Shown in pieces: positions 4,614 to 50,389 of a DNA stretch of 64,000 nt. The first letter of the stretch is position 1. Each line of letters begins with the position of its first letter. A model generated the notes under the pieces. The model searched no databases. It had not been told where the DNA came from and saw only the letters and a program-made list of their open reading frames with translations. Location of the stretch: contig JAKLGJ010000003.1 in NCBI GenBank assembly GCA_022710715.1, forward strand, positions 358,558 through 422,557, read 5' to 3'. The position numbers were made by a program, and so were the translations under genes. Source of the DNA: Candidatus Omnitrophota bacterium (GTDB lineage: Bacteria; Omnitrophota; Gorgyraeia; Gygaellales; Profunditerraquicolaceae).

Positions 4614-6632
4614 TTAAACGATGCCCCAGATATTTTTCTTGTACTGATCGAGCATCCGGTAGGTATTGAAATTTGCGCCGGCGATAAGGCAGTTGATCAT
4701 ATAGTCGAGCCATTTGGAAGAGAAATCGATCTGGCCCTTGTTATTGGTTTCGTAATACAGCTTGACCATTTCTTCCAGCGCCGCATACAGCTGTTTTGCG
4801 TCATCGACCATATGCAGGTCGCGCTCATCCCCCACCACTCCTTCCGGATTGACGTATCCGAAGATCTTTCCGATCCCTTTATCCGCCGCCTCTACCACCC
4901 ATCCGTCCAGCGTGCTGATCTGCACCACGCCGTTCAAAATAGCCTTCATGCCGCTGGTGCCGGATGCCTCAAACGGCGGCAGGGGATTGTTCAACCAGAC
5001 GTCGACGCTGGAAGTCAGAATCCTGGCGAGACTGATCTCGTAATTCTCCGGCATCATGATCTTGAGATAATCATACGCATCCACCAGCCCGTCCACCTTA
5101 TCCAGCATATCATTGATGAAGGTAAAACCCAGATTATCGCTGGGATGCGCCTTGCCGGCGAAAATGATCTGAATGGGGCCGATCTTCTTGGCCAGACTGA
5201 TCAATTTCTTGACATCCTGCAGGATCATGCTCGGCCGTTTGTACATCGCCACTCTCCTGGCCCAGCAGATGGTAAAAATATCCGGGCTGAATTTCCATTT
5301 CTCAAGAAGATTGCACAGGTCGATCTTATTCTGCTGATGCGCCTGCCAGACTTCGCGGCGAAAATCCGCTTTGTCCCGCAAACCGTCGACTTTGGTCAAC
5401 GCCATGGGATTGGCTTTGATATCGCCCAGGTCCGCGGCGTATTTCTCGAAAACCCCCTTAAAGCGGTCGGACATCCAGGTATGCGGATGCACGCCGTTGG
5501 TCACATGCTGGATCTGCTCTTTATACCTGGGGAACTGCAGTTGCATGACTTTGCCGTGGTTCAACGCCACCGCGTTGATCCGGGAAGCGATATTCATCGA
5601 AAGCAGCGTCAGGTTAATCGACCCTTTGTCTTTACCGAAGGTCTCGCAGATCTCGAAATCCTCTTTGCGCACGACACGGCTCAAATCCTCGGGAGAAAAC
5701 CGGTCATGACCGGCCTCGACCGGCGTGTGACAGGTATACACGAAATGTTTCTTGAGCGCGTCAACCTCCGCGCGCTGCAATCCCCGGGCTTTTTCCACAA
5801 ACGCGAAAACCGCGTGTCCTTCGTTAAGATGGAAAAGATTGACGTTGTAGCCGAGCTCGCGCAGCGCCGCAACCCCGCCCATGCCCAGGATAACCCGCTG
5901 CATGATCTTGATCCAGACATCATCGGACCGATAGAGCTGGTCGGTAAGATGCCGGATTTTCTCGTTATTCTCCTCTACATTGGCATCCAGCAGAACCAGA
6001 GGGACCACGGCATCGTGCTTATAGCTGTAGACGTAGTATTTCCACAAGCGCAGGTACAGGTCTTCATTGCGCAGGGAGATCTTGACTTTGTTCTTCAACG
6101 GGATCAAGCCGGGATACGACGTCAGGTCCCAGGTCATCCGTTCCGGCATCTGGCCGTACTTGAACCAGAATTTCTGCCGGAAATATCCGGTATTCCAGAG
6201 TATACCGATGGCCACTACCGGAAGCTTGTAGTCCGCCATGGTCTTGACCGTGTCCCCTGCCAGCACGCCCAGACCGCCGCTGTAAATCGGCAGGTCCACC
6301 AGCGAACGCAGGTTCAAGCTGAAATAATAATCCGCAAGGCGGCAATTGGAGAAGATTTCCTGTTCCTGACTCTTATTCTTGGGATCGATAGGGCGGGCGG
6401 AAGTGAATTTATTATAAAAACTGGTGGCCAATCCGTATTCCATGGAGAAATACGCCAGACACTTATCCTTGGGAGAGATCAAACGGCGCTCCGCCTCGAC
6501 GATACTGGAGAGCGGCAAACCGAAATAGGTCGCGTCACCGATATCCCCGGAATACCGTTCTTCAAACGCATCTACTTTGACCAGAGAGAGAAATTCGGCA
6601 AGCAGCTGCTGCTGTGTCACGCAACCCTCCAT
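4614..6632 (-). CDS. glgP: Alpha-glucan (glycogen/maltodextrin) phosphorylase, GT35 family
   Basis: Pyridoxal-phosphate lysine motif EASGTSGMK is present, with GT35-like overall conservation. The 672-aa size fits the short bacterial/archaeal alpha-glucan phosphorylases. Confidence 0.8.
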   Translation of the reverse strand: MEGCVTQQQLLAEFLSLVKVDAFEERYSGDIGDATYFGLPLSSIVEAERRLISPKDKCLAYFSMEYGLATSFYNKFTSARPIDPKNKSQEQEIFSNCRLADYYFSLNLRSLVDLPIYSGGLGVLAGDTVKTMADYKLPVVAIGILWNTGYFRQKFWFKYGQMPERMTWDLTSYPGLIPLKNKVKISLRNEDLYLRLWKYYVYSYKHDAVVPLVLLDANVEENNEKIRHLTDQLYRSDDVWIKIMQRVILGMGGVAALRELGYNVNLFHLNEGHAVFAFVEKARGLQRAEVDALKKHFVYTCHTPVEAGHDRFSPEDLSRVVRKEDFEICETFGKDKGSINLTLLSMNIASRINAVALNHGKVMQLQFPRYKEQIQHVTNGVHPHTWMSDRFKGVFEKYAADLGDIKANPMALTKVDGLRDKADFRREVWQAHQQNKIDLCNLLEKWKFSPDIFTICWARRVAMYKRPSMILQDVKKLISLAKKIGPIQIIFAGKAHPSDNLGFTFINDMLDKVDGLVDAYDYLKIMMPENYEISLARILTSSVDVWLNNPLPPFEASGTSGMKAILNGVVQISTLDGWVVEAADKGIGKIFGYVNPEGVVGDERDLHMVDDAKQLYAALEEMVKLYYETNNKGQIDFSSKWLDYMINCLIAGANFNTYRMLDQYKKNIWGIV

Positions 6633-12249: not shown

Positions 12250-12450
12250 TTATAACTTCACTACATTAGTAGCTTGTTCGCCTTTCGGACCTTTGGTAAT
12301 CTCGAATTCGACTTCCTGTCCGTCGGTCAATGTCTTGTACCCTTCTCCAACGATAGCGCTATGATGTACGAATACATCGGCGCCTGACTCGGGAGTGATA
12401 AAGCCATAACCCTTTTGGTTCGAAAACCACTTCACTTTACCTTTTGCCAT
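12250..12450 (-). CDS. cspA: Cold shock protein, CspA family
   Basis: [21 protein letters not shown]...VFVHHSAI: RNP1 motif KGYGFI and RNP2 motif VFVHH. 66 aa. Confidence 0.9.
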
Positions 12451-13861: not shown

Positions 13862-15715
13862 CTACCATGCCAGGATCACCGCAGTCAGGTCATCGTACTG
13901 CGGCGCCGATCCCTGAAAACCGTTGAACTGCGCTTCCATGCCGCGCAGCACGGCGTCGCCGTCTTGACCGCGTAACGCGTAAAAAGTTTCTTTGAGCCGT
14001 TCGGTGCCGAACTCCTGCTGTTTCCCGTTGCGGCCTTCTGTCCAACCGTCGGTATACATGAACAGCCTGTCCCCCGGCATAACCTGTCGCCTTACGGTAG
14101 TATAGGCACAGCCGGGCATCAACCCCAGCGGAGCTGCCGAAGCCTGGCATAATTCTTCCAGCCGGTCAGCGGCGCCCGTGGTATACAGCAGCGCCGGGTG
14201 GCCGGCGCACGCGCCTTCCCAGAAACCTTCGCGCCCATGCACGATCAGGTATTGCCCGGTGACAAATCGTCCCTGGAGCAACGCCACCAACTGATCGTTC
14301 AACCGGGAGAGGACCTGCGCAGGATCGCGGGAATCTTGGGCCAGGACCCGCAGCAGGGAGATCGTCTGGGCCATGATCAACGCCGCCGGCACTCCCTTAC
14401 CGCTGACATCGCCGATGAACACCCCGTAAGTCGATTCATCCAGCCGGATCACATCGTATAAATCGCCTCCCACGAATTTTGCGGGTTTGAGGAACGTGCG
14501 CAGCTGCGCCGCCCCGATCTGCCGCAGGTCCGCAGGCAGAAAACTGCGCTGGATGGAAGCGGCGATCTCCAGCTCCTTCTCCAGAATTCGCCTTTTCTGC
14601 GTTTCTTCCAGGAATTTCAACAGCAAACCCGAGACGTACACTGCCGCGATACCGGCAAGGGGCGTAAACAGATCGATGAAGATGCCCCGCCCAGAAAAAA
14701 GCCCCCAGGCAGCGCCGGTAAACAACGCCGCCAGTCCGATGCAGAGCAAACCCGCCTGCACCGGCGCCGCGATCAAACATATCCACAGCGCAGCCAGGAA
14801 TACGGCGCCGGCAATCAACGCTCTGACGCCCGGACCGGCCCGTTTGACAAATGCCTGGCGCAGAATAGTATCGCAGATGCTCGCCTGCGCGCCGACCATG
14901 GGATACACCGGCTCCAGCGGCGTGCCGCGAAAATCGGAAGTTCCGGTGGCAGTCAGCCCCACAAAACAGATTTTATCCTTGAATACGTTCAGATCGAGGG
15001 CGGCAGGTTGATTATTTTGACGGGCGACATAGGCTTGAAGCACATCGCGATAGGAATAATGTTTGAATGTCTCTTTCCATCGACCGGGGAAATTCACCCA
15101 GAAGGCTCCCCTGGCATCCACCGGCGCGGGGATCTGCGCGGGCGGTTTTCCCAGAAACCCGGCAGCAGCCGCTAATCCCAGAGAAGGCCAGAGAACATCC
15201 GCCTGGCGGACAAAAAGCGGAACTCTGCGCACTTTGCTGTCGGCATCGACAAAGATGTTGATCTGCCCGATCCCGGCGACAACCGGTTCAAGCGGCGCCG
15301 CCACCGCAGACAATGTTCCAGTGGCCGCGGGAAGACCGGCCCCCTCCCGGAGCGAAAATGCGACCGGCAGGATCACCCTGCCGGATTTAGACAATGCGTC
15401 TATCAACAAAAAATCGTTTTTGCCGGGTTCGCTGAAAAGGATATCAAAAACGATAAGCCTGGCTTTGCTGCCGGATAAGATCTGGATCAAGCTCGCATGA
15501 AACGTCCGGGGCAACGGCCAGCGCCCCAGTTCTTTCAACGTGGAGTCATCGATTTCGATAATCGCGATTTCCGGACTGACTGCCTGCCTGGGCCGGGAAC
15601 GCATCAGCCAGTCATAACCGATCATCTCCTGTTTTTCAAAAACCCCGGTCACCGCCGCAGCGCCGATGATAAGAACGCCGGCAGCCGCAACCGACCACAG
15701 CCAGGCGCGCTTCAC
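13862..15715 (-). CDS. CHASE2 extracytoplasmic sensor fused to a SpoIIE/PP2C serine phosphatase (RsbU-like)
   Basis: Signal/TM start, then a roughly 270-aa CHASE2 region including the conserved CFVGLTATGTSDFRGTPL..YPMVG block. Three TM helices follow, then a PP2C domain (EIAASIQRSFLP ... GGDLYDV ... GDVSGKGVPAAL ... YTDG). Confidence 0.8.
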   Translation of the reverse strand: MKRAWLWSVAAAGVLIIGAAAVTGVFEKQEMIGYDWLMRSRPRQAVSPEIAIIEIDDSTLKELGRWPLPRTFHASLIQILSGSKARLIVFDILFSEPGKNDFLLIDALSKSGRVILPVAFSLREGAGLPAATGTLSAVAAPLEPVVAGIGQINIFVDADSKVRRVPLFVRQADVLWPSLGLAAAAGFLGKPPAQIPAPVDARGAFWVNFPGRWKETFKHYSYRDVLQAYVARQNNQPAALDLNVFKDKICFVGLTATGTSDFRGTPLEPVYPMVGAQASICDTILRQAFVKRAGPGVRALIAGAVFLAALWICLIAAPVQAGLLCIGLAALFTGAAWGLFSGRGIFIDLFTPLAGIAAVYVSGLLLKFLEETQKRRILEKELEIAASIQRSFLPADLRQIGAAQLRTFLKPAKFVGGDLYDVIRLDESTYGVFIGDVSGKGVPAALIMAQTISLLRVLAQDSRDPAQVLSRLNDQLVALLQGRFVTGQYLIVHGREGFWEGACAGHPALLYTTGAADRLEELCQASAAPLGLMPGCAYTTVRRQVMPGDRLFMYTDGWTEGRNGKQQEFGTERLKETFYALRGQDGDAVLRGMEAQFNGFQGSAPQYDDLTAVILAW

Positions 15716-16131
15716 AACCCGCCTCCCAGCCGTTTAACCATGCGCACCCCGCTGCCCTGATCGTAGAATTCAACTTCATCCATCAGCTTACGCATCAAAA
15801 ACACCCCCCGGCCAGAAGGCCGATTGACGTATTCCCTGCGGGTAGGATCCGGCAGATGCAGGAAATCGAAGCCCTTCCCCTGGTCATGCACGTCCATCGC
15901 CACCTGACGGCTGTCCGCTTCTATATGCACGCTGACCTGCCGGCGTGGATCGGAAGCATTGCCGTGCCGGATAGCGTTGGTCAACGCTTCTTCCAAAGCC
16001 AGCCTGATATTAAAAGCGTCTTCTTCCTGACATCCCAGCGCGCGGATCTTGTGGATCATTCCGTCGATAAAAGGCGTTACCATCTTCAGGTCTGAAAACA
16101 GCAGTTCATCGGCACGAAAAGAGTCTGTCAT
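15712..16131 (-). CDS. Anti-sigma regulatory factor-type Ser/Thr kinase (RsbW/SpoIIAB-like HATPase)
   Basis: 139 aa. N-box LALEEALTNAIRHGN and G-box DQGKGFD. Translationally coupled (4-nt overlap) to the CHASE2-PP2C gene. Confidence 0.8.
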   Translation of the reverse strand: MTDSFRADELLFSDLKMVTPFIDGMIHKIRALGCQEEDAFNIRLALEEALTNAIRHGNASDPRRQVSVHIEADSRQVAMDVHDQGKGFDFLHLPDPTRREYVNRPSGRGVFLMRKLMDEVEFYDQGSGVRMVKRLGGGL

Positions 16132-16139
16132 GGGAAAGT

Positions 16140-16532
16140 TTATTCCAGCGGTTTGCGGGGTTGGATCGTTCCTTTTTGCACCCCGTCGAGAAATTTATCC
16201 AGGTACTGATCCGCTTCCTGCAGACTGGCGAACATCTGCGGCGTAAGCACCTTCATCGTTTCAAAAACCAGCTGCACCTTAGGCTGCATATTCACCAGAG
16301 CCACTGTCCCGCCGCGCTCCTCAATGGCGAGCTTGATCCGGAATACCGCGCTCAAACCCATGCTGCTGATATAGGTCACCTGGCTCATGTCCAGCACCAG
16401 CGCCCGGGCAGCGGGGATCACCGTTTTAACCCTGTCTTCGAACTGCTGATAGGTCTGCGTATTGATTTCGCCCTTCGGGGTCAGCTGATAAATACCTTTC
16501 TCATGCTCCGCGATCGTAATATCGAATGCCAT
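16140..16532 (-). CDS. STAS-domain anti-sigma-factor antagonist (SpoIIAA/RsbV-like)
   Basis: 130 aa. Phospho-serine motif region YISSMGLSAV. It sits 8 nt upstream of the RsbW-like gene. Confidence 0.8.
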   Translation of the reverse strand: MAFDITIAEHEKGIYQLTPKGEINTQTYQQFEDRVKTVIPAARALVLDMSQVTYISSMGLSAVFRIKLAIEERGGTVALVNMQPKVQLVFETMKVLTPQMFASLQEADQYLDKFLDGVQKGTIQPRKPLE

Positions 16533-16541
16533 AACCTCTCC

Positions 16542-17516
16542 TTATCTTTTCCGGCCGCCGCCCCCCCCGCTTCTGGGTGCTTTGGCGGGAGGCGGATTCT
16601 TAGGCGCTTGCGCATTCTTAGCCGGTTGAGCATCCTTGACCGCCTGCCCATCCTTGACCGGCAGGATCATCTTCTGCGCAGCCGGGCTGTCTTTGATCTG
16701 CTGTTTGATCTCTTCGGCCTGCTGCGCGCGCGCGGGCTGATCTCCGCTGCGCAAAGGTCTGAACCCTTCGCCGGCGGACTGCTTGATCCGCTGCTTGAAA
16801 TCCTGGCGGTTGAAAGCCGGGCGCTGCTGCCGTTTGACCATCGCTTCGCCGCCGCGCCGGCGCACATCCTGTTTCAGCGATTGCCACTGCTGCCGCCGTA
16901 CCCCGGATACAGGCCGCATCTCTGCCGGCCGCTGGAACTTGCGCACCGTGGTCATTTGCCCGGGCTGAATGGGAGTGAACTGCTGCGAAACCTCGCCGCT
17001 GGACTCGAAATGACGCACATACGGCTGGCTGTCCACAGCTTCCACATCCGTTCCGTCCGCGGTTACTTTGGTCACCCAGTCCGTGCCTCTGGCGCCGGAA
17101 ACGGCAGTGGGAGTGCGGATCTCGAAAGAGCTTCCGCAGGACAAAGCGTTCACGGTGGCAAAAACCTCGCCGTCAGTCATTTCGAGCTTCTCATCGACGG
17201 ACAAAGTCAACCGCACCGTGGTATATTCACTCAAGCGAACAAGATTGGTATTGTCTTCGTTAAAAGCGAGCTCCGCCGAAGACGAACCGCCGGTCTTGAG
17301 CGTATCCCCGGCTTCCAGGATCATCCCCTCTTCGGCCGGAGCATATCCGTCGGCTTCTTTGAGCAAAACTTCCACCGTGCCGCTCAAACTGGTTATTTCC
17401 GCCTGCTGCGCGGTCTGCGCCCGCACAACGTCACCCGCCGGCCAACCGCCGCAGGCCGTCAATAAACCAACGAAAACACCTATCCCGCAGGATAACAAAG
17501 CCGTTTTTCTCCGCAT
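16542..17516 (-). CDS. FecR-domain lipoprotein with a long basic/Gln-rich disordered C-terminal tail
   Basis: Lipobox LLTAC. The FecR-like core is GTVEVL...G...EAGDTLKTGGSSSAELAF.D...RLSE.T...EIRTPTAVSGARGT. The C-terminal 130 aa are low-complexity (Q/R/K/P/A). Confidence 0.6.
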   Translation of the reverse strand: MRRKTALLSCGIGVFVGLLTACGGWPAGDVVRAQTAQQAEITSLSGTVEVLLKEADGYAPAEEGMILEAGDTLKTGGSSSAELAFNEDNTNLVRLSEYTTVRLTLSVDEKLEMTDGEVFATVNALSCGSSFEIRTPTAVSGARGTDWVTKVTADGTDVEAVDSQPYVRHFESSGEVSQQFTPIQPGQMTTVRKFQRPAEMRPVSGVRRQQWQSLKQDVRRRGGEAMVKRQQRPAFNRQDFKQRIKQSAGEGFRPLRSGDQPARAQQAEEIKQQIKDSPAAQKMILPVKDGQAVKDAQPAKNAQAPKNPPPAKAPRSGGGGGRKR

Positions 17517-21120: not shown

Positions 21121-24100
21121 TTAGTTTCCTGCATTCTCTTTCTGCTTCTCGTCAAAGGCCTGGAAGAACTCCAGCAGGTCATTGTGTCCGACGAGCTGCA
21201 ACTGACCGTCTTTGAGCTCATAGGCGTCGGCACCGACCGAGAACTGGTCGAATGCGCCCATGTCCGTTGAAGTAAGCGGATGGTAGAAATACACCGATCC
21301 GATGGTAGAACTGAACTGATAGGTATCCAGATCAGCCACATTCGTCACTACCGGCTCATAAGCCATAATATCGCCGACAGGAGCGATAAACTCTTCCTCC
21401 TCCTCGACCGGCTCGGGTTCAGGAATGACCGGCTCTTCTTCATCGGGAATGTCGTTGAAATAAACGATGCCGGGAGCGGCATACACGGTAATAGCGTCCG
21501 GCGTGGTCTGCTCACGAACGCTTCCGGTCAACGCCGCGCTGACGCCTTCGATCTCGCCGTATGATATCAGGTACAGAGCCCCTTCGCCGGTAATGAGCAC
21601 GTCGAGCGGATTGTCCGTGGTGCCGATGGAGCTTTCGGAATAAATGATCTCATAATCCGGATATTCGCCGGTATACGAATAGCTGCCGCCATAGATATAC
21701 ACGGGACCGGCGCTGGTAATATGCGCTCCTTCGATATCGCCGGCAATGATCGATCCTCCGGCGATCAGGTACAGCCCGGACGCCGCGCCGTTAATCCCGG
21801 CGTTAAGAATGATATCCCCGGCAGCGTAAAGAGTCTCCAGGTTATAGTATGCAGCAAGGCCGGTTTCAGGAGTTTCTACGGCGATATCCCCTGCGGTGGA
21901 ACGAATGCTGATCCCGTCAAGCCCGTCGTCGTCGCTGTACAGATACGCGCCGAACGCGGGTTCCTCTGCGTCCCCGCAGAGAATGATTTCGCCGCTAAAG
22001 ACGATGTCGCCGGCCGATTGAAGCGAGAAATATTCTGCGGTCAGCGCAGGCATCCCGTCGCCGGTATCGCTGTACAGGCTGCCGTAGCCGTTAAGGTTTT
22101 CATCCGCGTGCAAAACGATCTCCTGCGCCTCCAGGTTACTGTACAGGTACAGATCGCCCGCGGAATACAGATAAATATATTCGGTTCTCGGCTCGAGATC
22201 GTAAACGGTCAGGGTTTCTTCCAGGGTGGAGAAAATTGAGATGGATAACGGTTCCGCATCTTCAACCGGCGTATACAGCTCTAACGTCGCGCTTGCCTCA
22301 TCCAGCGTCAGATAGAACGATCCATCCGCGCCTTCGCTGACGTAGAAATCATTGGCCCCCTGGAAGGTGTGGCGGAAACCGACCAATTCGAGATACTCGC
22401 CGGCAAAGCGCAGCTGGCCTGATCCATCCTGATCGCTGTCGGCAATGGCAGTGATGGAATCACCCATCAGGCTGTTATACGAAATCAAATCTCCCTGCGC
22501 CTGCAGGCTAAGACCGCCGAAGGTTTCAAACGGGATCTGCGCGTTTTCTGCTATGGCTTCGGAGCGCACCGGGAAATCATAACCGTCCACATCGATCTCG
22601 ATATCTCCCCCGGCGACCACGCTTACCGCTCCCGCCTGGGCTGTGGCTGACGCCGCAAGAGCTACTGCGCCCTGGCCGGTGGCCTGCGCCATTGAATACA
22701 CCTGGGATGCGCTTAACACGCTGAAATCTCCGCCTGCAGAAATCTCCAGCGGACCGCTGACAGCCGCAGCCGTATCCATGGCGTAGGCGTACGCCGTAGA
22801 ATCCAGCCCGGAAACCAGGTCGATAATGAAGCTGCCGACAGCCGAAACCAGGATCTCGCCCGCAGTGGCATCGGCGGTGTCGCTGGCCGGCACGTCCCCG
22901 CCGACATAAGAAGTACCTGCGCTGGCCAGGGTATACACGTGAGCGCTGTTAAAATTAATAGACCCGTTGGTGAACAATCCCATATCTCCGGAAACCGCCG
23001 TTGCTACCGATCCGCCCATGGCTGAAGCCGAAGAATAAACCGAAGATTCGCCGGCGATGGAAATCCCGCTCTCCTCGCTGAAAGAACCGGCGTCCAGGAC
23101 TACTTCGCCGCTGGTCGCTGCCGCAGCGCCCTCGCCCCAGGAAAGCGCGCTGGCCGCGGAATAAATGCTGCTGATGTTGTCCATCCCGGAATCAAGGTAA
23201 ATGCCCATTGCCAGGACGCCTACGTCGCCGGAGGTTGCGCCGGCATCTCCGGAAGCCTCGGCAACAGCCGAGGAATAAAGGCTGCCGGCGATCCCGACCG
23301 TGCCCTCTTCGGCGAACAAAGTCACGTCGCCGGAGAACGCTTCCGCGGAACCGTTGCCATAAGCCGTAGCGCTGGAATTGATGGTTTGATCGAGCTCGAT
23401 AGCGCCGGTCAGAGCGGTCACATCCACGTCGCCGGACCGGGCTGTCGCCTGGTTGAAAGCGTCTGCGGACGCCGAGGTGTACGCTTCTGCGCCGTTAAAG
23501 AGCTCCACGCTGCCGGCTTCGATAAGGATATCGCCGGACTCGGCGGTCGAATTATAGGAAACATCCGCGATAGCGCGGGTATTGGGATCAACGCCGTCGG
23601 AACTCAATGTCCCCGCGGCAATCAGGCTGATGTCGCCGGAATAGGCTACTGCTTCGTCTCCCTCTCCGGTTGAGGCTTCTGCCAGGGATGAGAGGAATCC
23701 TTCGTACAGCGAGATCGAGCCGCTGGCGCTTTCCAGGCTCACGTCCGAAGCGTACGCGTATGCGTAAGCGTCGCCTTCGGCGGTTGCCCAGGAAGTGAAT
23801 GATGCGGTCGCCTCATATTCGGGATTGCCCTGGGCAGTGATCCCGTTGTAACCGTATACGCTCACGCTGCCGGCGTAAGCGTAGGCCTGCGGGTATTCGC
23901 CGCCGGAGGCATAGGCTTCGGCGCGGCTGTTGAGGTCCGGAGACCCGAGCAGGCTGAAAAGACCGTAGCAGGTAATATCGATATTCCCGGTAGAAGCGTA
24001 GGCGTATTCCCGGGCATAAGCAGCGGCATTGGACTGCGCCGGGGTATAGGTCAATTGCATATCGCCGCTGGAATACAAGGCAACGTCGCCTGCGGTCAGG

Positions 24101-27100
24101 CTCACCGAATCCGCTTCCACCACTTCGCCGTAGAGCGAAGCCTCGGAATAGATCGAAGCGCCGATGCCGTTCAATGCGCCGTAGGCCGTGATCCAGAGAT
24201 CGCCGGATTCAGCTTCCAGGGTACCGGTGCCGGCGACCGAAGCGATCGAATATACCGAAAATTCGGAAAGGGTATAATTGCCGTTGATCATCAGGTTCAG
24301 ATCGCCGGAATAAGCCTGGGCATCGCTTGCGGAAGCGATTGCCGAGGAATAGAATGCGCAGGTCTGGTCCACTGATCCGGCTTCGATGTTCACCGAACCG
24401 GAAGAAGCCCGGGCGTACTCGCTGCCCTCGGCTTGCGCGGACGAATAAATATCCTGATTGACGTCCAGGAAATTAGAAGCATCAATGGTTACGTTGCCCG
24501 CGGTGGCGTACGAATAGGTCCCGCCCAGGGCCTGGGCGTTGCTGTAAACGTAACATTCGTTCAGATAAACGTCGTAGCCGGCAAGATTGACGTTGCCCGC
24601 GGTCACGCTGGTGTTCAATGCGGGATATTCGGAAATGACTTCGGAATTGGCGTAATAGACCCGCAGGGTCTGCCCGGCATAGATCGTCACATCGCCGGTA
24701 ACAGCCTGAAGCAGGTTCGGGAAGGTTCCGTCGCCGCTGGAATAGGCTTCCGCCGTGGAAACAGCGGCGTTCAGGTTGACCGATCTATACCAGCTGTGCA
24801 CGTCGATATCGTCAGCGGTGGCATACGCCTCCCCTGCGTCCAAACGGACATCCGCGGAAGCGTTGGACTGCGCCGTGGAAGGTATCTCGATATCGCCGTC
24901 CTGGGAGGCTACGGTAATCCTGCCGGAGACCGATTCCGCTCTCTGGTAGGCGTAGGTCCGGGCCTCGGAATTGAGGTACTGTTCGGAAAGGGTGATATCT
25001 CCGCCGGCGTCGATGGTTATGTCTCCGGCCAGGCCGTAAGCCTGGGCAGCTTCTCCCTGCGCCGAGGTGTCCGCGTACACGTGTGAGCCGTTGGAAAGAG
25101 CGATCGCGCCGCCGGCGTCGATCATTACCGCCAGATACGACCATTCATAATTGTTGTAATCGTAATATTCTGCTCCCGCGTAGGCCTGGGACAACGATCC
25201 GGGCTCGTTGGGCATGCTGGTCTGGGAGTCGGAGGAAGAATACACGTCGGTCATGCTCAAGTCGATATTCCCGCTGTCCGCGGAAAGAATTACGCTCGAG
25301 GAATTGGCCAGGGCCCGGGAGCCGGCGGAGGCGTGCGCGTACGAGTAAACATCTGCGCCGTATCCTGATCCAACCGAAGATATCCCGGCATTGCCGGAAA
25401 GGGTAACCGAGCCGCTGGTGGCGATAGCCGTGGAACCGGACAGGCCGTTATACACATTCGCATCGGCCGAGGAAAAGATCTGAGAGCCTTCGATATTGTT
25501 CAACAGTCCGCCGGCGCTGACGCTCACATTACCGGAAGTCGCAGTTGCGGTTTCCGATCCCGACGCGCGGGCTTGAGAGGAAATGTTCGCCCAATCCAGG
25601 GAGATGTTGCCGCCGGCGATCAGGCTCACCGCTCCGGAAACAGCGGAATTGTCGTACGCCGGACCGGATCCGGATGCATACGAAGAAATGTTGACGCCGT
25701 AATTAAAGGTAATCGCGCCGCCGGCATCCAGGGTGACATCTCCGGAGACCGCATTCTGCACCGGCTCGCCTTGGCCGCCACCCACTGTCGAACTGATGCT
25801 CACCTGATTGTCAACCAGGATATCCCCGCCTGCGGACAGATAGATCGATCCGCCCGCAGCATCGGTGAAAACATCGTTGTGAACAGTAAGGCCGGCCATT
25901 GCCTGCACGATAATATTGCCGCCGGCGTTATACATGCCGTCCGCATATTCGTCGGGATGAACAATCTGCAGATCGCGGTCATTGGAGATATAGATATCGC
26001 CGGAGCCGAGGTTCTCCGCGGCGACAGCCTGCACGTTCAAAGCCGCATCGATGCCGCTGGCCGCGGAAAGCATCGCGGCGCCTGCTGAAACCCGGCCGGT
26101 TCCCGGCTGTATCAACGTCTGACTGTAGATCTCGAAACCGGAAAGCGCGCTGGCGTACACCCTCACATCGTCAATAGCGCCTTCAGTAAGACGCGACCTG
26201 GCGCCGAAACCGCCGATCCAGAAACTCGCGCCCGTATCGACCGTGCCTTCGGGAACCGCGAATTCGCTGCCGTACTTGACGTCATCGTTGAATATGTAGA
26301 GGCTGCCTTCCGTGCCGTCGCGCACCATGGATACCTGATACCAGTTATTGTCATTAATCGCTATGGCGCTGTTGTCCATATCGTTATTCACCCAGCTCTG
26401 CAGGGAACCGTTCAAGGTCTCCAGCGCGTAACCGGTGGTGTAGAGCGGGCTCAAAGAAGCGCCCAACAATCCCACATTCTTGTCGCGCAGCTGGGTTCCG
26501 CGATACCAGCACAACAGGGTAAACGGCTCCGCGCCGAAGCCGAAATCAGTGCCGATGTTGAAATAGTCGTTGATCCCGTCAAAATAGAGCGCCTGGCCAT
26601 ATATGCCTTCCGGAACGATATCCGGGGTACCGCTGGCGTAAGCGGAATAACCGTTGCCGCTGACGTCCTGGGCATAATAATAGGAATAATACTGGTCGAA
26701 ATTCCAGTAAGCGCGCAAACCGTATTCTTCCACTTCCAGGTTACGGCGGATAATCGCGCCGTTATCCGCCCTCAAATAGACCGTTGCCAAATCAGGAGCG
26801 ACGATATCGGCCAGGGTATTCAGGATGATCCCGTTCTGTCCCTGGGCCTCCAGATACACATCGCCTTCGGAAATGATGCCATACCGCACCCGTATATCCC
26901 CGGCAGCGTATATAGCCGTTTCGGTCTGTGCGGCATAATTCTCCGCTACCAGCACCACCAGGTCTTGGTCGTTATACAGATAAATGCCGCCATATCCTTC
27001 ATTATACGCTACCAGCTTATTGACGGAAATTGCCAGGCCTTCCTCTATATTATCACCGATACCGCCATATGCTTCCAGATAGAGCTCATCCGCTTCAATG

Positions 27101-28911
27101 CAAACCCCTTCATCGCCCTGCAATAATTGTCCGGAAGAAGTCAAAACCACCAGGCCGGGAGAATAGATCTCCTGGATATAAAGCGGCGCCGAATCCTGCT
27201 CGATCCAGATATCGCCTGCGGAAGATTCCGGGTTGATCGTAGCCCGGACATAGCCGACATTGGTCAATATGGGGTTGGCCATGGTTCCGATACCGGAACC
27301 GGCCCGCATATTAAGGAAAGCTGTCCCTGTTTCTGAAGTGGCGGAAATTACATATTCTCCGGCATTGTAAATCGCGCCAATGCCCGGATCATAGGTAGTG
27401 TCCCATTCATACCAGAAATATTCTTCGCCTTCGGAAAAACGCTCGTGATCGGCGTAAAGATTGAGGGTGGAATTGTAACCGAGGAAAATGTCGCCGGTGA
27501 TGGTGATATCTTGCCAGGCATCAACCGTGACTGTGGTGTATTCACCGATGGTACCGCTATACTCGTTGGTGGCAGGGTCTAATAATGCATTACCGGGGGT
27601 AAATCCCGGAGGCGCCCGGCCGTTTAAAATGCCGTAAAAGCCCAATTGGGCGAAAGCGTCTACCCGCGCGACGCCGCCGTTACCGGAAACCGCGCCTGCG
27701 GAAAAATCTATTACTGCGTTCTTATTCACGAAAGTGTTGCCGTTTTTGGAATCGACCAGGATCCGGCCGCCGTTCCCGGCCAAACCGACTGCCTGCGCTT
27801 CCGTAACGCTGTTTTCATCCAGAACCGTCAAGGTATCGCTGACAATACTGATCTCTCCGGCTGTGCCCTGCTCCAGAGCATTGGCGGAAATGATACCCTG
27901 CTGCAGAATTGTTGCGGCTTCCAGGGCTATTTTGCCGCCATCCGGGCTGGTCGCGCTCAAAGCATCGGCTACGATCCTGCCTTCCGGGGCATTGGTAATC
28001 CCGGCATCGCTTACCTTAATATGTACTTGTGCAGCTTCCAGGGTACCGCTGTTGACTACTGGCGCCCCTTCCGCTACCAGTTCGATCACCCCGTCCTTTT
28101 CCACCAGAGAGGTTACTTTCACCAAACCGGTGTTATTGATGGCGTAATCGAAAACGCGATTGAGCACTTTAGCGGTCAAAATAACTTTGCCGCCTTGAGC
28201 CAGGATGGTGCCGCTATTCTTGACCGCGGAATCGATCCTCCGGCCATCCGGTCCGAATAACTCTTCCTGCACAGCCTGATCGATCGCTACGGAAATGGCG
28301 TTGGAATCTTCCAGCGACAAAGTCATCTTTTCACCGGAAGCCAGGACCACGGTGCCCAGATCAGCCTGGATCACCATTCGGTTATCCACTGCGTGTCCCA
28401 GCAGACAGACATAACCGCCGGCCTGCGCGGTGATCGTGCCCTGATTGATGATGTATCCGGCTTTACCGGCTTTGCTGAAAACGTAATTGCCTTTCAGGAA
28501 ATCTTCATTGGAAATGTTCAAGGTCGAAGCGACCAATCCGGCAACATCAACCTGCGAACCCGGTCCGAAAACAATCCCGTTGGGGTTGATCAGGAATACT
28601 TTTCCATTGGCGCTCAATGAACCCAGAATGCTGGAAGGATCACCGCCAACCACGCGGTTCAGCGCTACCGCGCTGGCAGAAGGCTGCGCGAAACGCACTG
28701 CTTCCTGCGCGGCAATATTGAAACTGTTGTAATCCACAATGAGTTTATCGGAAGGGGTAGTGACGGTCAGGGAATCGGCTTGAGAACGATCAAAGGTTGC
28801 GCTGCCGGCAACCACATTCTCGCCTTCAGGCAAGGCATAAACAAAAGAACAGCAACTTAAAAGGATGCTGGTTGCTGCTATCAGTATTCTTACATGGGTT
28901 TGTTTCGGCAT
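21121..28911 (-). CDS. Giant two-partner-secretion exoprotein (TpsA/filamentous-haemagglutinin-like, 2596 aa) with an N-terminal TPS domain, an internal LamG/concanavalin-like domain, and a long Tyr/Ala/Ser/Gly-rich beta-helical repeat region
   Basis: Signal peptide, then a TPS domain with ALNRV....NPNGIVFG (aa ~30-300). LamG-like block YGQALYFDGINDYFNIG...CWYRG...WYQVSMVRDG..SLYIFND...FWIGG...IDDVRVYASALS (aa ~745-930). It is followed by about 1500 aa of degenerate ~38-aa repeats (consensus ~[SA]GD[VI].[LV].A.G.I.L....YSSA.A.A). The C-terminus has an acidic linker (DEEEPVIPEPEPVEEEEEF) and a ~100-aa tail domain. Encoded immediately downstream of the tpsB gene. Confidence 0.8.
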   Translation of the reverse strand: MPKQTHVRILIAATSILLSCCSFVYALPEGENVVAGSATFDRSQADSLTVTTPSDKLIVDYNSFNIAAQEAVRFAQPSASAVALNRVVGGDPSSILGSLSANGKVFLINPNGIVFGPGSQVDVAGLVASTLNISNEDFLKGNYVFSKAGKAGYIINQGTITAQAGGYVCLLGHAVDNRMVIQADLGTVVLASGEKMTLSLEDSNAISVAIDQAVQEELFGPDGRRIDSAVKNSGTILAQGGKVILTAKVLNRVFDYAINNTGLVKVTSLVEKDGVIELVAEGAPVVNSGTLEAAQVHIKVSDAGITNAPEGRIVADALSATSPDGGKIALEAATILQQGIISANALEQGTAGEISIVSDTLTVLDENSVTEAQAVGLAGNGGRILVDSKNGNTFVNKNAVIDFSAGAVSGNGGVARVDAFAQLGFYGILNGRAPPGFTPGNALLDPATNEYSGTIGEYTTVTVDAWQDITITGDIFLGYNSTLNLYADHERFSEGEEYFWYEWDTTYDPGIGAIYNAGEYVISATSETGTAFLNMRAGSGIGTMANPILTNVGYVRATINPESSAGDIWIEQDSAPLYIQEIYSPGLVVLTSSGQLLQGDEGVCIEADELYLEAYGGIGDNIEEGLAISVNKLVAYNEGYGGIYLYNDQDLVVLVAENYAAQTETAIYAAGDIRVRYGIISEGDVYLEAQGQNGIILNTLADIVAPDLATVYLRADNGAIIRRNLEVEEYGLRAYWNFDQYYSYYYAQDVSGNGYSAYASGTPDIVPEGIYGQALYFDGINDYFNIGTDFGFGAEPFTLLCWYRGTQLRDKNVGLLGASLSPLYTTGYALETLNGSLQSWVNNDMDNSAIAINDNNWYQVSMVRDGTEGSLYIFNDDVKYGSEFAVPEGTVDTGASFWIGGFGARSRLTEGAIDDVRVYASALSGFEIYSQTLIQPGTGRVSAGAAMLSAASGIDAALNVQAVAAENLGSGDIYISNDRDLQIVHPDEYADGMYNAGGNIIVQAMAGLTVHNDVFTDAAGGSIYLSAGGDILVDNQVSISSTVGGGQGEPVQNAVSGDVTLDAGGAITFNYGVNISSYASGSGPAYDNSAVSGAVSLIAGGNISLDWANISSQARASGSETATATSGNVSVSAGGLLNNIEGSQIFSSADANVYNGLSGSTAIATSGSVTLSGNAGISSVGSGYGADVYSYAHASAGSRALANSSSVILSADSGNIDLSMTDVYSSSDSQTSMPNEPGSLSQAYAGAEYYDYNNYEWSYLAVMIDAGGAIALSNGSHVYADTSAQGEAAQAYGLAGDITIDAGGDITLSEQYLNSEARTYAYQRAESVSGRITVASQDGDIEIPSTAQSNASADVRLDAGEAYATADDIDVHSWYRSVNLNAAVSTAEAYSSGDGTFPNLLQAVTGDVTIYAGQTLRVYYANSEVISEYPALNTSVTAGNVNLAGYDVYLNECYVYSNAQALGGTYSYATAGNVTIDASNFLDVNQDIYSSAQAEGSEYARASSGSVNIEAGSVDQTCAFYSSAIASASDAQAYSGDLNLMINGNYTLSEFSVYSIASVAGTGTLEAESGDLWITAYGALNGIGASIYSEASLYGEVVEADSVSLTAGDVALYSSGDMQLTYTPAQSNAAAYAREYAYASTGNIDITCYGLFSLLGSPDLNSRAEAYASGGEYPQAYAYAGSVSVYGYNGITAQGNPEYEATASFTSWATAEGDAYAYAYASDVSLESASGSISLYEGFLSSLAEASTGEGDEAVAYSGDISLIAAGTLSSDGVDPNTRAIADVSYNSTAESGDILIEAGSVELFNGAEAYTSASADAFNQATARSGDVDVTALTGAIELDQTINSSATAYGNGSAEAFSGDVTLFAEEGTVGIAGSLYSSAVAEASGDAGATSGDVGVLAMGIYLDSGMDNISSIYSAASALSWGEGAAAATSGEVVLDAGSFSEESGISIAGESSVYSSASAMGGSVATAVSGDMGLFTNGSINFNSAHVYTLASAGTSYVGGDVPASDTADATAGEILVSAVGSFIIDLVSGLDSTAYAYAMDTAAAVSGPLEISAGGDFSVLSASQVYSMAQATGQGAVALAASATAQAGAVSVVAGGDIEIDVDGYDFPVRSEAIAENAQIPFETFGGLSLQAQGDLISYNSLMGDSITAIADSDQDGSGQLRFAGEYLELVGFRHTFQGANDFYVSEGADGSFYLTLDEASATLELYTPVEDAEPLSISIFSTLEETLTVYDLEPRTEYIYLYSAGDLYLYSNLEAQEIVLHADENLNGYGSLYSDTGDGMPALTAEYFSLQSAGDIVFSGEIILCGDAEEPAFGAYLYSDDDGLDGISIRSTAGDIAVETPETGLAAYYNLETLYAAGDIILNAGINGAASGLYLIAGGSIIAGDIEGAHITSAGPVYIYGGSYSYTGEYPDYEIIYSESSIGTTDNPLDVLITGEGALYLISYGEIEGVSAALTGSVREQTTPDAITVYAAPGIVYFNDIPDEEEPVIPEPEPVEEEEEFIAPVGDIMAYEPVVTNVADLDTYQFSSTIGSVYFYHPLTSTDMGAFDQFSVGADAYELKDGQLQLVGHNDLLEFFQAFDEKQKENAGN

Positions 28912-29027
28912 TCAGAGGATTGAATCACTGACCGTGGCTGTAAGTGACTCGCATTGAAAAGGTTTTCTTCCTACTCTAACTTATAAGTAAGTATACTCTA
29001 AAAGTGCTGATTTGTCAAGGAAAACCA

Positions 29028-30731
29028 TTAAAATTGCTTGGATGCTGAAAGCCAGGGATGGAAATGATCGCCGTCCGACGGTGTTTTAGCCAGCGGCCAG
29101 GCCAGGTCAACCCGCAGGGAAAAATCCTCCGGCAGGGTAAACCTGAAACCGAAGCCCACGCTGCGCAGAGTGCCGCGTTTCCTCTCTCCTGCCTGGGGAT
29201 TCTTCAGACGCACCCAGCCCAGATCATAGAAGAGCGCAGTTTTGAAAGCATTGTAGAATGTTGCTTTGGAGAAAGGAACCTTTAAATCTTTGGGACAGCA
29301 ATACGGCGGAATGATCCATTCCAAAGTGGAAGTGAATCCCTGATCCCCGACATATTCGCCGGAAGGATACCCTCTGACATTGGAGATGCCGCCAATCTGC
29401 ATCTGCTGGGAAGCAGCCAGGACATACGGGGAAAGCTGCAGCTGATTTTTCCACAAAACCGCGGTGGACCAGGGAGCTTTCTGCAAATGCAGCAGATTCG
29501 CGGAATGCTTAAGGAACTTGCCGCCTGCGCCGGTTCGCGAAGCGCGGCTGTCTTTAGCTTTCAAGCCGCCCATGATGCCGGAAAATCCAAAATCGGATTC
29601 GGGAGAAAAAATCGTTCTGCCGCCCCAGGGATTGGAGTAATCGATATCAAAACCCAGCTTCGCCCAACGCAACCGGTCCCGGCTCTGTTCGACTCCGGCC
29701 TGAAAGTTGAACGAATCCAGATAATCGAACCCGGTGTTGAACGTAACCGTCAGATCGTTGCGGCTTAACATTTCGTACATGCCGAATATTCCGTACATCC
29801 GGCTTTTTCCCCGGGACTGTAAAGCCCGGTATTCCTGACCCAGGGCAAGTTTCGAGTGGGTAGCGTAGACGCCCACTTTTGTCCGCGGATTCACCGGCGC
29901 CAGGTAACGAGCGGCAAGCAAACGATAATCTTCCGCATCAGCCAGCTGATACTGCAAAGAGAAAATGTCGTCAAAACCGAGCAGATTGTTATGGCTTAAG
30001 GTGGTGGAATAACGGTCTTTGCGCACATAACGGGAACCGTAATTGTCCCAATCCAGCCGGGCGTGCAGAGGCAATCGGTCGGTCACCTGCAAAACGATAT
30101 CCGTGGACCCGGGGTCTTTTCCCGGGACCAGCACTGCTTTGACCTGGCGGTCGGGATGCTCATTGAGCTTGGAGAGGCTTACCCGGAGATCGTCATAGTT
30201 GAACGGCTCTCCCCTTTCAAGGATGATCGCCTTGCGGATCAGAGCGGATCGAAAAAAACGGTTGCCCTTTACCTCCACATCCCCGGTAGTTCCCTCTATG
30301 GCCTTGATCTGCAGCTCGCCGCCTTCGATTTTCTGGGGAGGCAGGTAGCCGCGCGAGGTCACATACCCCTTACTGCGGTAAGCGTCGGTAATCAGATCGA
30401 CCACTTTCTGCATATCCGCTAAAGAAATCTCTTTGTTCTCGAACGGAGCCACGATATCCGCGATTTCCATCTGGCTTAAGAGAGTAACGCCGGTAACAGT
30501 GATCTTCTTGACGAAAGCCTTTTGATCTTTGGAAGGCAACGGCTGTGAAACTACCGGCTGCTCTTCTATGACCGGAGCCGCCGGTTCCTGTTCAATGCGT
30601 TCCCGCAGAGCTTTCTCCTGCTCGATCTGACGTTCCTCCTGCTGGACTTTCTCCGCCTGCTGGGCAAGAACCAACGAAGGGAATAACAACGTCATAGAGA
30701 TGATCACTATGCCGATCTTTGATCTGTTCAT
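29028..30731 (-). CDS. ShlB/FhaC/HecB-family TpsB outer-membrane transporter (POTRA domains plus 16-strand barrel)
   Basis: Signal peptide. POTRA region ITVTGVTLLSQMEI...YRSKGYVTSRGYLPPQKIEGGELQIKAIEGTTGDVEVKGN. A C-terminal barrel has alternating hydrophobic residues and ends SASKQF. Confidence 0.85.
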   Translation of the reverse strand: MNRSKIGIVIISMTLLFPSLVLAQQAEKVQQEERQIEQEKALRERIEQEPAAPVIEEQPVVSQPLPSKDQKAFVKKITVTGVTLLSQMEIADIVAPFENKEISLADMQKVVDLITDAYRSKGYVTSRGYLPPQKIEGGELQIKAIEGTTGDVEVKGNRFFRSALIRKAIILERGEPFNYDDLRVSLSKLNEHPDRQVKAVLVPGKDPGSTDIVLQVTDRLPLHARLDWDNYGSRYVRKDRYSTTLSHNNLLGFDDIFSLQYQLADAEDYRLLAARYLAPVNPRTKVGVYATHSKLALGQEYRALQSRGKSRMYGIFGMYEMLSRNDLTVTFNTGFDYLDSFNFQAGVEQSRDRLRWAKLGFDIDYSNPWGGRTIFSPESDFGFSGIMGGLKAKDSRASRTGAGGKFLKHSANLLHLQKAPWSTAVLWKNQLQLSPYVLAASQQMQIGGISNVRGYPSGEYVGDQGFTSTLEWIIPPYCCPKDLKVPFSKATFYNAFKTALFYDLGWVRLKNPQAGERKRGTLRSVGFGFRFTLPEDFSLRVDLAWPLAKTPSDGDHFHPWLSASKQF

Positions 30732-30925: not shown

Positions 30926-31663
30926 ATGTTCCTCTTTATCCGGCTGGTACTGGCGCATTTCCTGGGAGATTTCCCCTTTCAGTTCGACACCATTTACAAA
31001 CTGAAGTTCCAGGGGATCAAAGGAATCATCCCGCATGTACTGATCATTGCCGGCTGCAGCCTGTTGCTCTCCTGGCCTTATCTCAACCTGCCGCTGATGT
31101 GGGTCTTTATTGCGTTTGTCACCGCCGTACATTTGATCGAAGATTCCATCAAACTGAATTTCGGGACTAAAAAGTTCAGCTTCTGGGCATATATCGTCGA
31201 CCAACTGGTACATGTGGGCACTATCGCGCTTTTGCTGCTTACCGATCTCAAGCATCTTCCCCCTCCGGCAAACCAGGAAAACGTCCTGGTGCGGATCTAT
31301 ACCAATAACCATCTGATGCTTTTCATCATCGCGCTGATCGTGGCCACGTATAACGGGCATTTCCTGATCCGCTGCTTCAAAGACACCTTTTTTACCCGAG
31401 TAAATCAATGTTATATGCACGAAAAATGGTTCGGGATGGTAGAACGGGGAATGATCGTAGCGCTCTTCTTCGCTCGGGTGCCTCTTTTGATCCTGCTGGC
31501 AGTTAGCCTGTTGCTGCGGCCGCTGGCCTACCGCCTGCTCAAAAAACCTCTCTCTTTACACTCCTGCTTCATATCCAGAGCGGATACCGCGTTGAGCTGG
31601 ACGGTGGGAATGCTCACCGGCATAGCCCTCTGGCTACTTCAAACCCACTACCCGGTATATTGA
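30926..31663 (+). CDS. DUF3307-family polytopic membrane protein
   Basis: The only clear plus-strand gene in this region. N-terminal LAHFLGDFPFQ motif typical of DUF3307. 6-7 TM helices. Confidence 0.45.
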   Translation: MFLFIRLVLAHFLGDFPFQFDTIYKLKFQGIKGIIPHVLIIAGCSLLLSWPYLNLPLMWVFIAFVTAVHLIEDSIKLNFGTKKFSFWAYIVDQLVHVGTIALLLLTDLKHLPPPANQENVLVRIYTNNHLMLFIIALIVATYNGHFLIRCFKDTFFTRVNQCYMHEKWFGMVERGMIVALFFARVPLLILLAVSLLLRPLAYRLLKKPLSLHSCFISRADTALSWTVGMLTGIALWLLQTHYPVY

Positions 31664-33883: not shown

Positions 33884-33907
33884 TACTCTCTCTAGCCTTC
33901 TATGCCA

Positions 33908-34945: not shown

Positions 34946-34970
34946 TGTCCCTCCTTAGAAAAATCCGGGT

Positions 34971-35804: not shown

Positions 35805-35864
35805 GCCTGCCTCTCCCTTTTATACGCCTATTAGCGACATTCCATCCAACGTCATCGATCTACT

Positions 35865-49010: not shown

Positions 49011-49103
49011 ATGCGCCTCCGAAAGTTTGTGCGGCTGGAACGAATGGGATTGCGCTTGCGGGCCGCCGCAATAAGCGGCAGCCCGCAGCACTCAACGACT
49101 GTA

Positions 49104-50371: not shown

Positions 50372-50389
50372 CCGGGACCTCGCTTTCTT

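Follow-up and report, generated by a model that had tools for sequence, protein, structure and literature searches.

Partner switches are usually taken to be regulators of sigma factors, as in the RsbV/RsbW–sigmaB and SpoIIAA/SpoIIAB–sigmaF systems of Bacillus, and sigma-independent partner switches are established as well (SypA/E, BtrUVW, RbaVW, and HmpUVW; PMC8256260, PMC10120452). On the sensory side, a FecR-domain protein has been described beside a CHASE2 receptor in Burkholderia BiofilmReg (PMC5192318), in the CyaD1/SMc02177 pair of S. meliloti (PMC5498481), and in cyclase clusters of Campylobacterota (PMC9239204), and in S. meliloti CHASE2 cyclases, among them CyaD1, receive a signal by way of NsrA, an outer-membrane (OM) barrel (PMC13001267). 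Here, we report the computational analysis of a four-gene module on the minus strand (13862-17516) of a 64-kb window, that is, the whole stretch of 64,000 nucleotides taken from contig JAKLGJ010000003.1 of a Candidatus Omnitrophota bacterium. The module encodes a FecR-domain protein (FecR1), a stand-alone STAS protein (STAS1), an RsbW-like kinase (RsbW1), and a membrane phosphatase with a CHASE2 sensor and a PP2C output (CHASE2-PP2C). It is of a known kind, the partner switch; what is new is its FecR/CHASE2 envelope input within a conserved multi-input supercluster. As for the output, we consider, at a rough probability of 55%, that the STAS proteins would target partners outside transcription, as SypA, SiaC, and MlaB do, and not a sigma factor encoded nearby and dedicated to them, a reading weighed below.

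The module consists of four close-packed open reading frames (ORFs) whose coordinates match exactly those of the initial annotation, which had read them from the letters alone as FecR, STAS, RsbW-like kinase, and CHASE2-PP2C, an assignment that Pfam bears out domain by domain (table 1). FecR1 and STAS1 are 9 nt apart, STAS1 and RsbW1 8 nt, and RsbW1 overlaps the phosphatase gene by 4 nt. In the phosphatase, hydropathy places transmembrane (TM) segments at residues 4-27 and, as a cluster, at 294-369, with the CHASE2 domain spanning residues 14-314, which yields a topology (TM1, periplasmic CHASE2, about three TM segments, cytoplasmic SpoIIE/PPM domain) that fits the layout of CHASE2 receptors. 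Its metal-binding aspartate motifs (GDxYD, DVSGKG, TDG, and DD) are invariant in a 12-sequence alignment (D418, D421, D436, D556, D608, and D609), and its homologues number more than 1600, the majority in Omnitrophota; one NCBI protein from a metagenome-assembled genome matches it at 100% identity.

In STAS1, Ser57 aligns with the phosphorylated serine of SpoIIAA (PDB alignment) and opens helix 2 in an AlphaFold2 (AF2) model (predicted local distance difference test, pLDDT, 83), and S56, S57, G59, and L60 do not vary across 31 orthologues, so that we propose Ser57 as the putative phospho-acceptor. The best structural matches of the model are SpoIIAA and RsbV in complex with their kinases, MlaB coming further down the list; the NCBIfam ant_ant_sig model is barely passed (53.7 vs. 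a cut-off of 53.45), and mlaB_1 in the same collection gives no match. Past the Pfam domain, the C-terminus of STAS1 orthologues is prolonged by a conserved stretch, EADxYLDKFLDGVQKGTI. With STAS1 as the query, about 100 close Omnitrophota orthologues were retrieved and no distant contexts. RsbW1, aligned to RsbW and SpoIIAB, has the N-box (EALTNAIRHG), G1 (DQGKGF), and G2 (GRGVFL) all present, and scores below the NCBIfam equivalog cut-offs for both families (48.9 vs. 135 for spIIAB, 44.7 vs. 145 for RsbW). Its best PDB sequence match is a 304-aa protein named "SenB" (9qih), ranked above RsbW and SpoIIAB. Judged from its sequence, the module has everything that a partner-switching (phospho-STAS) cassette requires, and its input faces the envelope.

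The initial annotation had further counted four STAS proteins (at 16140, 52539, 55016, and 62315), two RsbW-like kinases, and three PP2C phosphatases in the window, each phosphatase with an input domain of its own. This census is right: all four STAS proteins pass Pfam, which also agrees on the CHASE2, dCache+HAMP, and cyclic nucleotide monophosphate (cNMP)-binding inputs. What that annotation did not describe as such is that the second kinase is the N-terminal domain of a fusion protein (HATPase_c_2 6-131, cNMP_binding 156-235, SpoIIE 313-504), hereafter the fusion.

FecR1 combines a signal peptide and lipobox (LTAC22) with a FecR domain (71-160); its C-terminal tail, about 130 aa long, is basic and of low complexity. 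It had been called a lipoprotein; the term suits FecR1 itself, which we infer to be lipid-anchored in this genome, and does not extend to the family, where a lipobox occurs in 3 of the 56 homologous FecR proteins of related loci and most have an ordinary signal peptide. Weak matches to the Leptospira LipL45/Lsa33 lipoprotein models were also seen. In the close clade to which the window belongs, the FecR protein gained the long basic tail and the OM barrel was lost. A secreted FecR protein is a recurrent and typical accessory of CHASE2 receptors (of 46 related Omnitrophota loci, 35 have its gene upstream of that for CHASE2-PP2C), and on this genomic evidence we propose that FecR1 may serve as a periplasmic co-sensor of the CHASE2 domain. 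That FecR1 could be a FecR-type anti-sigma factor was considered and, on sequence grounds, ruled out, given its signal-peptide N-terminus and its lack of a cytoplasmic anti-sigma domain; near FecR1, neither an extracytoplasmic function (ECF) sigma gene nor a TonB-dependent receptor gene was found, as a FecI/FecR/FecA system would have them.

The genes that accompany the switch bear on the question of its output. Sigma factors were sought by running Pfam on essentially every plausible ORF of the window, together with permissive phmmer and jackhmmer searches of all its ORFs of at least 60 aa. The queries were four sigma-factor sequences, in themselves weak on planctomycete-type ECFs (E 0.004 for one on contig L087, vs. 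7e-61 with Pfam), and the two ECFs found with them; the window was negative. No sigma-70-family domain was thus detected in the 64 kb by Pfam or by phmmer/jackhmmer, and none of the genes called in the 10 kb past either window end has a sigma-family Pfam match on record on the 1.62-Mb JGI source contig Ga0116241_10000002 (3300010429), where one flank holds two-component and glycerol metabolism genes and the other DedA, an Mrp/hydrogenase-like complex, and ABC-F. No syntenic sigma gene accompanies the switch in about 100 related loci, and 975 kb from 78 related genomes hold only two ECF genes, unrelated strays (L018 and L061). The earlier statement that no sigma gene lies beside the modules holds in the window, in its 10-kb flanks, and across these related loci, and the sigma factor immediately outside the window that was named as its possible refutation is absent within 10 kb.

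What does travel with the switch in other Omnitrophota is a set of transport genes. Among 78 species-level genomes, 46 loci offer at least 5.5 kb of upstream sequence, and about two-thirds of the species-level relatives have a tight eight-gene order of RsbW, STAS, MlaE, MlaF, MlaD, FecR, barrel, and CHASE2-PP2C. Upstream of the phosphatase gene, RsbW is found in 40 of these loci, STAS in 38, FecR in 35, MlaF and MlaD in 32 each, MlaE in 30, and the barrel in 27, with a median intergenic gap of at most 34 nt at every junction and of 0 nt between STAS and MlaE. The Mla-linked operon is present in about 30 Omnitrophota genomes (among L013-L066); in one of them (L017, 2960-9899), Pfam identifies MlaE (E 7e-82), MlaD, and ABC_tran, and MlaF best matches solved MlaF structures. 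Taken together, this suggests that the Mla-linked STAS may be a phosphorylatable MlaB-like subunit. Phospho-regulation of MlaB was left as an open question by Kolich et al. (PMC7367683), and our literature search returned no paper connecting Mla with RsbW-type kinases. A STAS–MlaE fusion that would have provided Rosetta-stone support was discarded, the 425-aa ORF concerned (L088) holding a STAS domain alone according to Pfam.

Action on non-transcriptional partners is favored because no sigma gene travels with the switch in the related loci and because, in the majority of Omnitrophota, the RsbW and CHASE2-PP2C genes bracket STAS-MlaE-MlaF-MlaD; hints in the same direction are this sister-clade operon and, in the window, GlgX, a debranching-type enzyme encoded between two STAS genes. 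Several observations weigh against it. The window has no Mla genes, and its Mla-less arrangement looks derived on a neighbor-joining (NJ) tree rooted on Desulfovibrio, where the Mla-linked order appears in two deep clades with the clade of the window nested between them, a tree computed without bootstrap. STAS1 and its paralogue STAS4 (YISSMG...EADxYL) form a subfamily separate from the Mla-linked STAS (YIDSSGLATL), and the Mla link is therefore not directly transferable to the window. The Mla-linked STAS itself scores 91.6 bits as a SpoIIAA-type antagonist and 31.9 against the MlaB model, whose cut-off is 90. On two soil contigs, an ECF sigma gene lies just downstream of a cNMP-PP2C gene (L087, 2166-2741; L092, 1288-1761); these cNMP-PP2C proteins are kinase-less and about 57% identical, the ECF is of planctomycete type (PF07638, E 7e-61), and the pair is the sole sigma adjacency encountered in the analysis. 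Finally, the lack of an adjacent sigma gene is weak evidence, as switches with a remote sigma factor exist. The initial annotation had deduced non-sigma targets from that lack and cited Chlamydia Rsb as a precedent; such targets are plausible, but the absence of a sigma gene nearby does not show them, and the precedent points in the opposite direction, Chlamydia Rsb being proposed to regulate a remotely encoded sigma-66 (PMC4552016, PMC11619594), which makes the deduction unsafe.

The same case leads to the most serious alternative, in which RsbW1 and the kinase domain of the fusion would sequester a remote sigma factor, perhaps the housekeeping one as has been proposed for Chlamydia, the STAS proteins would be antagonists of the ordinary kind, and the multiple phosphatases would add inputs in the way of Bacillus RsbU and RsbP. 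We hold this to be possible but rather unlikely. It can draw on the fact that STAS1, STAS2, and STAS3 pass the NCBIfam superfamily model of anti-sigma-factor antagonists, on the nearest solved folds and sequences being those of SpoIIAA/SpoIIAB and RsbV/RsbW, on the dispersed chlamydial system with its two RsbV, its periplasmic-sensor RsbU, and its remote sigma factor (PMC11619594, PMC4552016), and on the soil contigs just mentioned; yet it has to accommodate the missing sigma synteny, an RsbW1 far under the SpoIIAB and RsbW equivalog cut-offs, and conserved neighbors that are transport and carbohydrate genes (MlaEFD and GlgX). In addition, four STAS proteins for two kinases, together with conserved C-terminal motifs, suggest that the STAS proteins have partners of their own.

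The initial annotation had supposed a single network across the window. Relatives back this view: two of them (L003 and L004, with a PP2C 54-55% identical) have, within about 17 kb, the order NMT1, dCache-PP2C, FecR, STAS1, RsbW, CHASE2-PP2C, STAS4, AGE-like enzyme, STAS3, GlgX, STAS2, fusion, and DJ-1, with an ankyrin gene and a PAS histidine kinase inserted between dCache-PP2C and FecR in L003, and a third (L079) likewise joins the CHASE2 module to the GlgX block. The order STAS3-GlgX-STAS2-fusion is kept in L003, L004, L079, L080, L082, L083, L084, and L086, and the longer block AGE-STAS3-GlgX-STAS2-fusion-DJ-1-cupin-DJ-1-TPP (TPP, thiamine pyrophosphate enzyme) in seven further contigs at 61-69% identity. 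A STAS gene directly follows CHASE2-PP2C in 20 of 74 loci and is of the STAS4 type in close relatives, L003, L004, and L079 included. Since the same genes are syntenic in relatives, the enrichment of STAS, kinase, and PP2C genes in the window is not a matter of chance. Paralogy suggests that the network has two arms: identity is 37% between STAS1 and STAS4 and 30% between STAS2 and STAS3, RsbW1 resembles the Mla-linked RsbW more than it does the fusion's kinase domain, and the PP2C domains of dCache-PP2C and of the fusion share 56% identity, against 36-37% with that of CHASE2-PP2C. On these synteny and sequence grounds, the cassette appears as one arm of a lineage-specific Omnitrophota network. 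An all-against-all clustering of neighbors in the close clade brought up nothing but generic two-component genes.

That these are independent systems brought together within 64 kb by coincidence seems, by comparison, very improbable. The modules do lie 33 kb apart in the window and each phosphatase has a sensor domain of its own, but in the three relatives above one uninterrupted cluster takes in the CHASE2 module, STAS4, AGE, STAS3-GlgX-STAS2, and the fusion, and in L003 and L004 dCache-PP2C as well, and both the STAS genes directly after CHASE2-PP2C in about 20 loci and the 56% identity of the dCache and cNMP PP2C domains point the same way. Barely credible, finally, is that the annotation itself misleads, the STAS proteins being SulP/SLC26 fragments and FecR an ECF anti-sigma factor: SulP transporters do contain STAS domains, the FecR domain owes its name to an anti-sigma factor, and weak sulP-model matches were seen, limited to the STAS of relatives, but the four STAS proteins are complete, stand-alone, SpoIIAA-like ORFs of 106-135 aa, and none has a Sulfate_transp gene in its vicinity (a fragment origin, which the initial annotation had named as its other possible refutation, is thereby set aside), STAS1 folds as SpoIIAA/RsbV, and FecR1 has neither a cytoplasmic anti-sigma domain nor an adjacent ECF sigma or TonB-dependent transducer gene.

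Table 1. Features of the switch and of its associated clusters, in positions of the 64-kb window.
Feature	Position	Strand	Size and support
FecR1, FecR-domain protein	16542-17516	-	324 aa; PF04773 E 2e-8
STAS1, stand-alone STAS protein	16140-16532	-	130 aa; PF01740 E 1e-17
RsbW1, HATPase_c_2 (RsbW/SpoIIAB-type GHKL serine kinase)	15712-16131	-	139 aa; E 2e-27
CHASE2-PP2C membrane phosphatase (CHASE2+SpoIIE)	13862-15715	-	617 aa; Pfam E 6e-54 / 4e-39
Second FecR/CHASE2 cluster	31634-37604	-	Pfam
ShlB/POTRA_2 of second cluster	35865-37604	-	Pfam
FecR2 of second cluster	34971-35804	-	Pfam
OM beta-barrel of second cluster, 14 strands	33908-34945	-	AF2 pLDDT 83
CHASE2 class-III cyclase of second cluster	31634-33883	-	Pfam
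Kinase + cNMP-binding + PP2C fusion	50974-52521	-	515 aa; Pfam
STAS2	52539-52859	-	106 aa; Pfam; NCBIfam ant_ant_sig 67 bits
GlgX/isoamylase-type debranching enzyme	52863-55016	-	Pfam CBM_48 + Alpha-amylase + ISOA1-3_C
STAS3	55016-55357 (source gene call); longest ORF to 55423	-	113 aa (source gene call); Pfam; NCBIfam ant_ant_sig 80 bits
dCache+HAMP+PP2C membrane phosphatase	58192-60102	-	636 aa; Pfam
NMT1/THI5-like periplasmic binding-protein homologue	60099-61172	-	Pfam
STAS4, closest paralogue of STAS1	62315-62689	-	124 aa; Pfam; 37% identity to STAS1

Within the second arm, the STAS3-GlgX-STAS2-fusion genes overlap or nearly abut (50974-55423, minus strand): the stop codon of STAS3 overlaps the start of GlgX, which is flanked by STAS3 and STAS2, and STAS2 lies 17 nt upstream of the fusion gene. 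The cNMP-binding domain of the fusion has an intact phosphate-binding cassette (GEMGIF...RTASAV), and the PDB matches of the fusion are Rv1364c (the best), RssB, RsbW, and CRP. STAS3 reaches 25.5 against the NCBIfam MlaB model (cut-off 90). Given its position, GlgX is a candidate non-sigma target of STAS2 and STAS3, and the operon may be linked to glycogen metabolism. A glycogen phosphorylase-like gene lies at 4614-6632 in the same window, and an AGE-family enzyme is encoded upstream of STAS3 (55481-57298). As to the third phosphatase, the best NCBIfam match of dCache-PP2C is SiaA (89 bits, under the cut-off), and its start is overlapped by 4 nt by the NMT1/THI5-like gene, a pair also found in L003, L004, and L105. 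Each membrane phosphatase of the window thus has a secreted accessory gene immediately upstream, FecR for CHASE2-PP2C and the NMT1-type gene for dCache-PP2C, and the NMT1/THI5-like protein may be an accessory sensor for the latter.

The window holds a second FecR/CHASE2 cluster, also present in a related species (L107), whose FecR-barrel-CHASE2 core is identical in order to that of the Mla-linked PP2C operons and whose barrel has a modeled fold matching CymA, OmpG, and FadL. By analogy, the cluster resembles the NsrA-to-CyaD1 relay of S. meliloti. Its CHASE2 class-III cyclase could supply the cNMP that the fusion would sense; in one relative (L085), a CHASE2-cyclase gene lies directly upstream of a cNMP-PP2C gene. 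P0243, considered as a paralogue in this genome, proved to be the orthologue from another species.

On this basis, a mechanism can be outlined for the cassette. An envelope or periplasmic cue would be passed by FecR1, whose counterpart in sister clades would be paired with an OM barrel, to the CHASE2 domain, which would set the activity of the PP2C domain; the latter would remove from STAS1 the phosphate placed there by RsbW1. STAS4 is probably a second substrate of this arm, because its gene directly follows CHASE2-PP2C in relatives, a position that may be ancestral. Once unphosphorylated, a STAS protein would bind RsbW1, a downstream partner, or both. In the second arm, the fusion could work as a SypE-like, cNMP-gated kinase/phosphatase on STAS2 and STAS3, and the paralogous dCache/HAMP-PP2C would constitute a third input. 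Pushed to its full extent, this would make the whole an envelope-homeostasis switch in which phospho-STAS proteins act on machines: in most Omnitrophota, barrel, FecR, and CHASE2 in turn would tune lipid transport by MlaFED through dephosphorylation of the STAS encoded next to MlaE; in this genome, the derived STAS1 and STAS4 would work in trans on a target of that kind, STAS2 and STAS3 would gate GlgX under cNMP, and FecR would be a general co-sensor of CHASE2. This joint picture is tentative, and we doubt that it holds in every part.

Other features of the surroundings deserve mention. GreA lies 21 nt upstream and TspO 4 nt downstream of the module, neither being a conserved neighbor in relatives, and nearly all genes of the window are on the minus strand. 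Three long plus-strand ORFs of 370-619 aa (16161-17465, 48990-50102, and 55661-57520) lie opposite real genes and have no Pfam match; they are artifacts of GC-rich sequence, not genes. Three DJ-1/PfpI genes (43496-44083, 46504-47091, and 48786-50956, minus strand) stand with a glyoxalase, a cupin, a tautomerase-like ORF, and a TPP enzyme (47122-48774); the DJ-1/TPP block is also found downstream of the fusion gene in L079-L086, and it may handle reactive aldehydes such as methylglyoxal. A two-partner secretion pair (21121-30731, minus strand), made of a ShlB-type transporter (29028-30731) and a 2596-aa TpsA protein (TPS, Laminin_G_3), is probably an insertion, because L107, a relative that is collinear elsewhere, lacks it. 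CspA-type cold-shock genes occur in two near-identical copies 51 kb apart (12250-12450 and 63389-63589, minus strand), with a third CSD gene (63093-63305, minus strand) near the second.

Set against the usual view of partner switches, the family described here, spread across the phylum, travels with Mla or GlgX genes and never with a sigma gene. If STAS proteins did act directly on their partners, the Mla-linked operons would for the first time give an MlaB-like subunit a kinase and a phosphatase of natural origin, the very question raised in PMC7367683; the FecR and OM-barrel partners of CHASE2 receptors, whose signals are largely unknown, would gain a role; and uncultured Omnitrophota would merge envelope, solute, and cyclic-nucleotide cues in one phospho-STAS network. 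If the target were a remote sigma factor instead, the locus would be an ordinary, richly sensored Rsb-type system.

How the locus relates to known systems can be followed from its core outward. With the sigmaB and sigmaF systems of Bacillus subtilis, it shares a PPM phosphatase, a STAS protein with a phospho-serine site at helix 2, and a GHKL serine kinase, the closest solved structures coming from RsbV/RsbW–sigmaB and SpoIIAA/SpoIIAB–sigmaF; as in RsbU/RsbP-RsbV-RsbW, several phosphatases with differing sensors probably converge. It departs from Bacillus in an operon without a sigma gene, in an RsbW1 that stays under the RsbW and SpoIIAB cut-offs, and in a phosphatase that is itself a receptor in the membrane, whose CHASE2 domain is periplasmic and whose FecR partner is secreted. 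Chlamydia trachomatis, of the same Planctomycetes–Verrucomicrobia–Chlamydiae (PVC) group and in phylogeny the nearest of the systems studied, also has dispersed Rsb genes with no adjacent sigma gene (PMC4552016, PMC11619594), a TM sensor PP2C, whose layout is that of dCache+HAMP-PP2C in the window, and more STAS proteins than kinases. The chlamydial system differs in its proposed target, sigma-66, and in having no CHASE2 or FecR input, and a PDB sequence search found no similarity of dCache-PP2C to the chlamydial RsbU sensor domain.

The fusion, for its part, has the architecture of SypE from Vibrio fischeri, in which a regulatory domain separates an RsbW-like kinase at the N-terminus from a PP2C at the C-terminus (PMC10120452, PMC8256260); SypE acts on the STAS protein SypA, itself the output, and the fusion likewise has adjacent STAS genes. 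Unlike in SypE, the central domain binds cNMP instead of being a REC domain, and the two STAS genes flank GlgX and not a polysaccharide locus. Rv1364c of Mycobacterium tuberculosis similarly unites PP2C and an RsbW-like kinase in one polypeptide, and differs in also including a STAS domain, in domain order, and in sensor. In Pseudomonas aeruginosa SiaABCD (PMC7647112), a membrane HAMP-PP2C, a kinase, and a small phospho-protein control an enzyme and not a sigma factor; here, dCache-PP2C is not a SiaA equivalog and has no SiaD-like cyclase beside it, and canonical STAS proteins serve as the substrates. In E. coli MlaFEDB, the STAS subunit MlaB has a threonine, Thr52, that corresponds to the phospho-site (PMC7367683, PMC5016091), and the mla operon has no dedicated kinase or phosphatase; the roughly 30 Omnitrophota relatives, in an arrangement unlike that of the window, have a STAS gene directly before MlaE-MlaF-MlaD, and this STAS is SpoIIAA-like in length and score, not an MlaB equivalog.

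Lastly, as in the pairs of Burkholderia, S. meliloti, and Campylobacterota, a secreted FecR gene adjoins the CHASE2 receptor gene, and as S. meliloti has NsrA, most Omnitrophota loci, like the second cluster of the window, have a gene for a 14-strand OM barrel placed between those for FecR and CHASE2. FecR1 stands apart from the FecR proteins of those pairs by its lipobox and long basic tail, with neither a LysM domain nor a barrel partner. Above all, whereas those receptors end in a histidine kinase or a cyclase, the output here is a PP2C that feeds into a partner switch.

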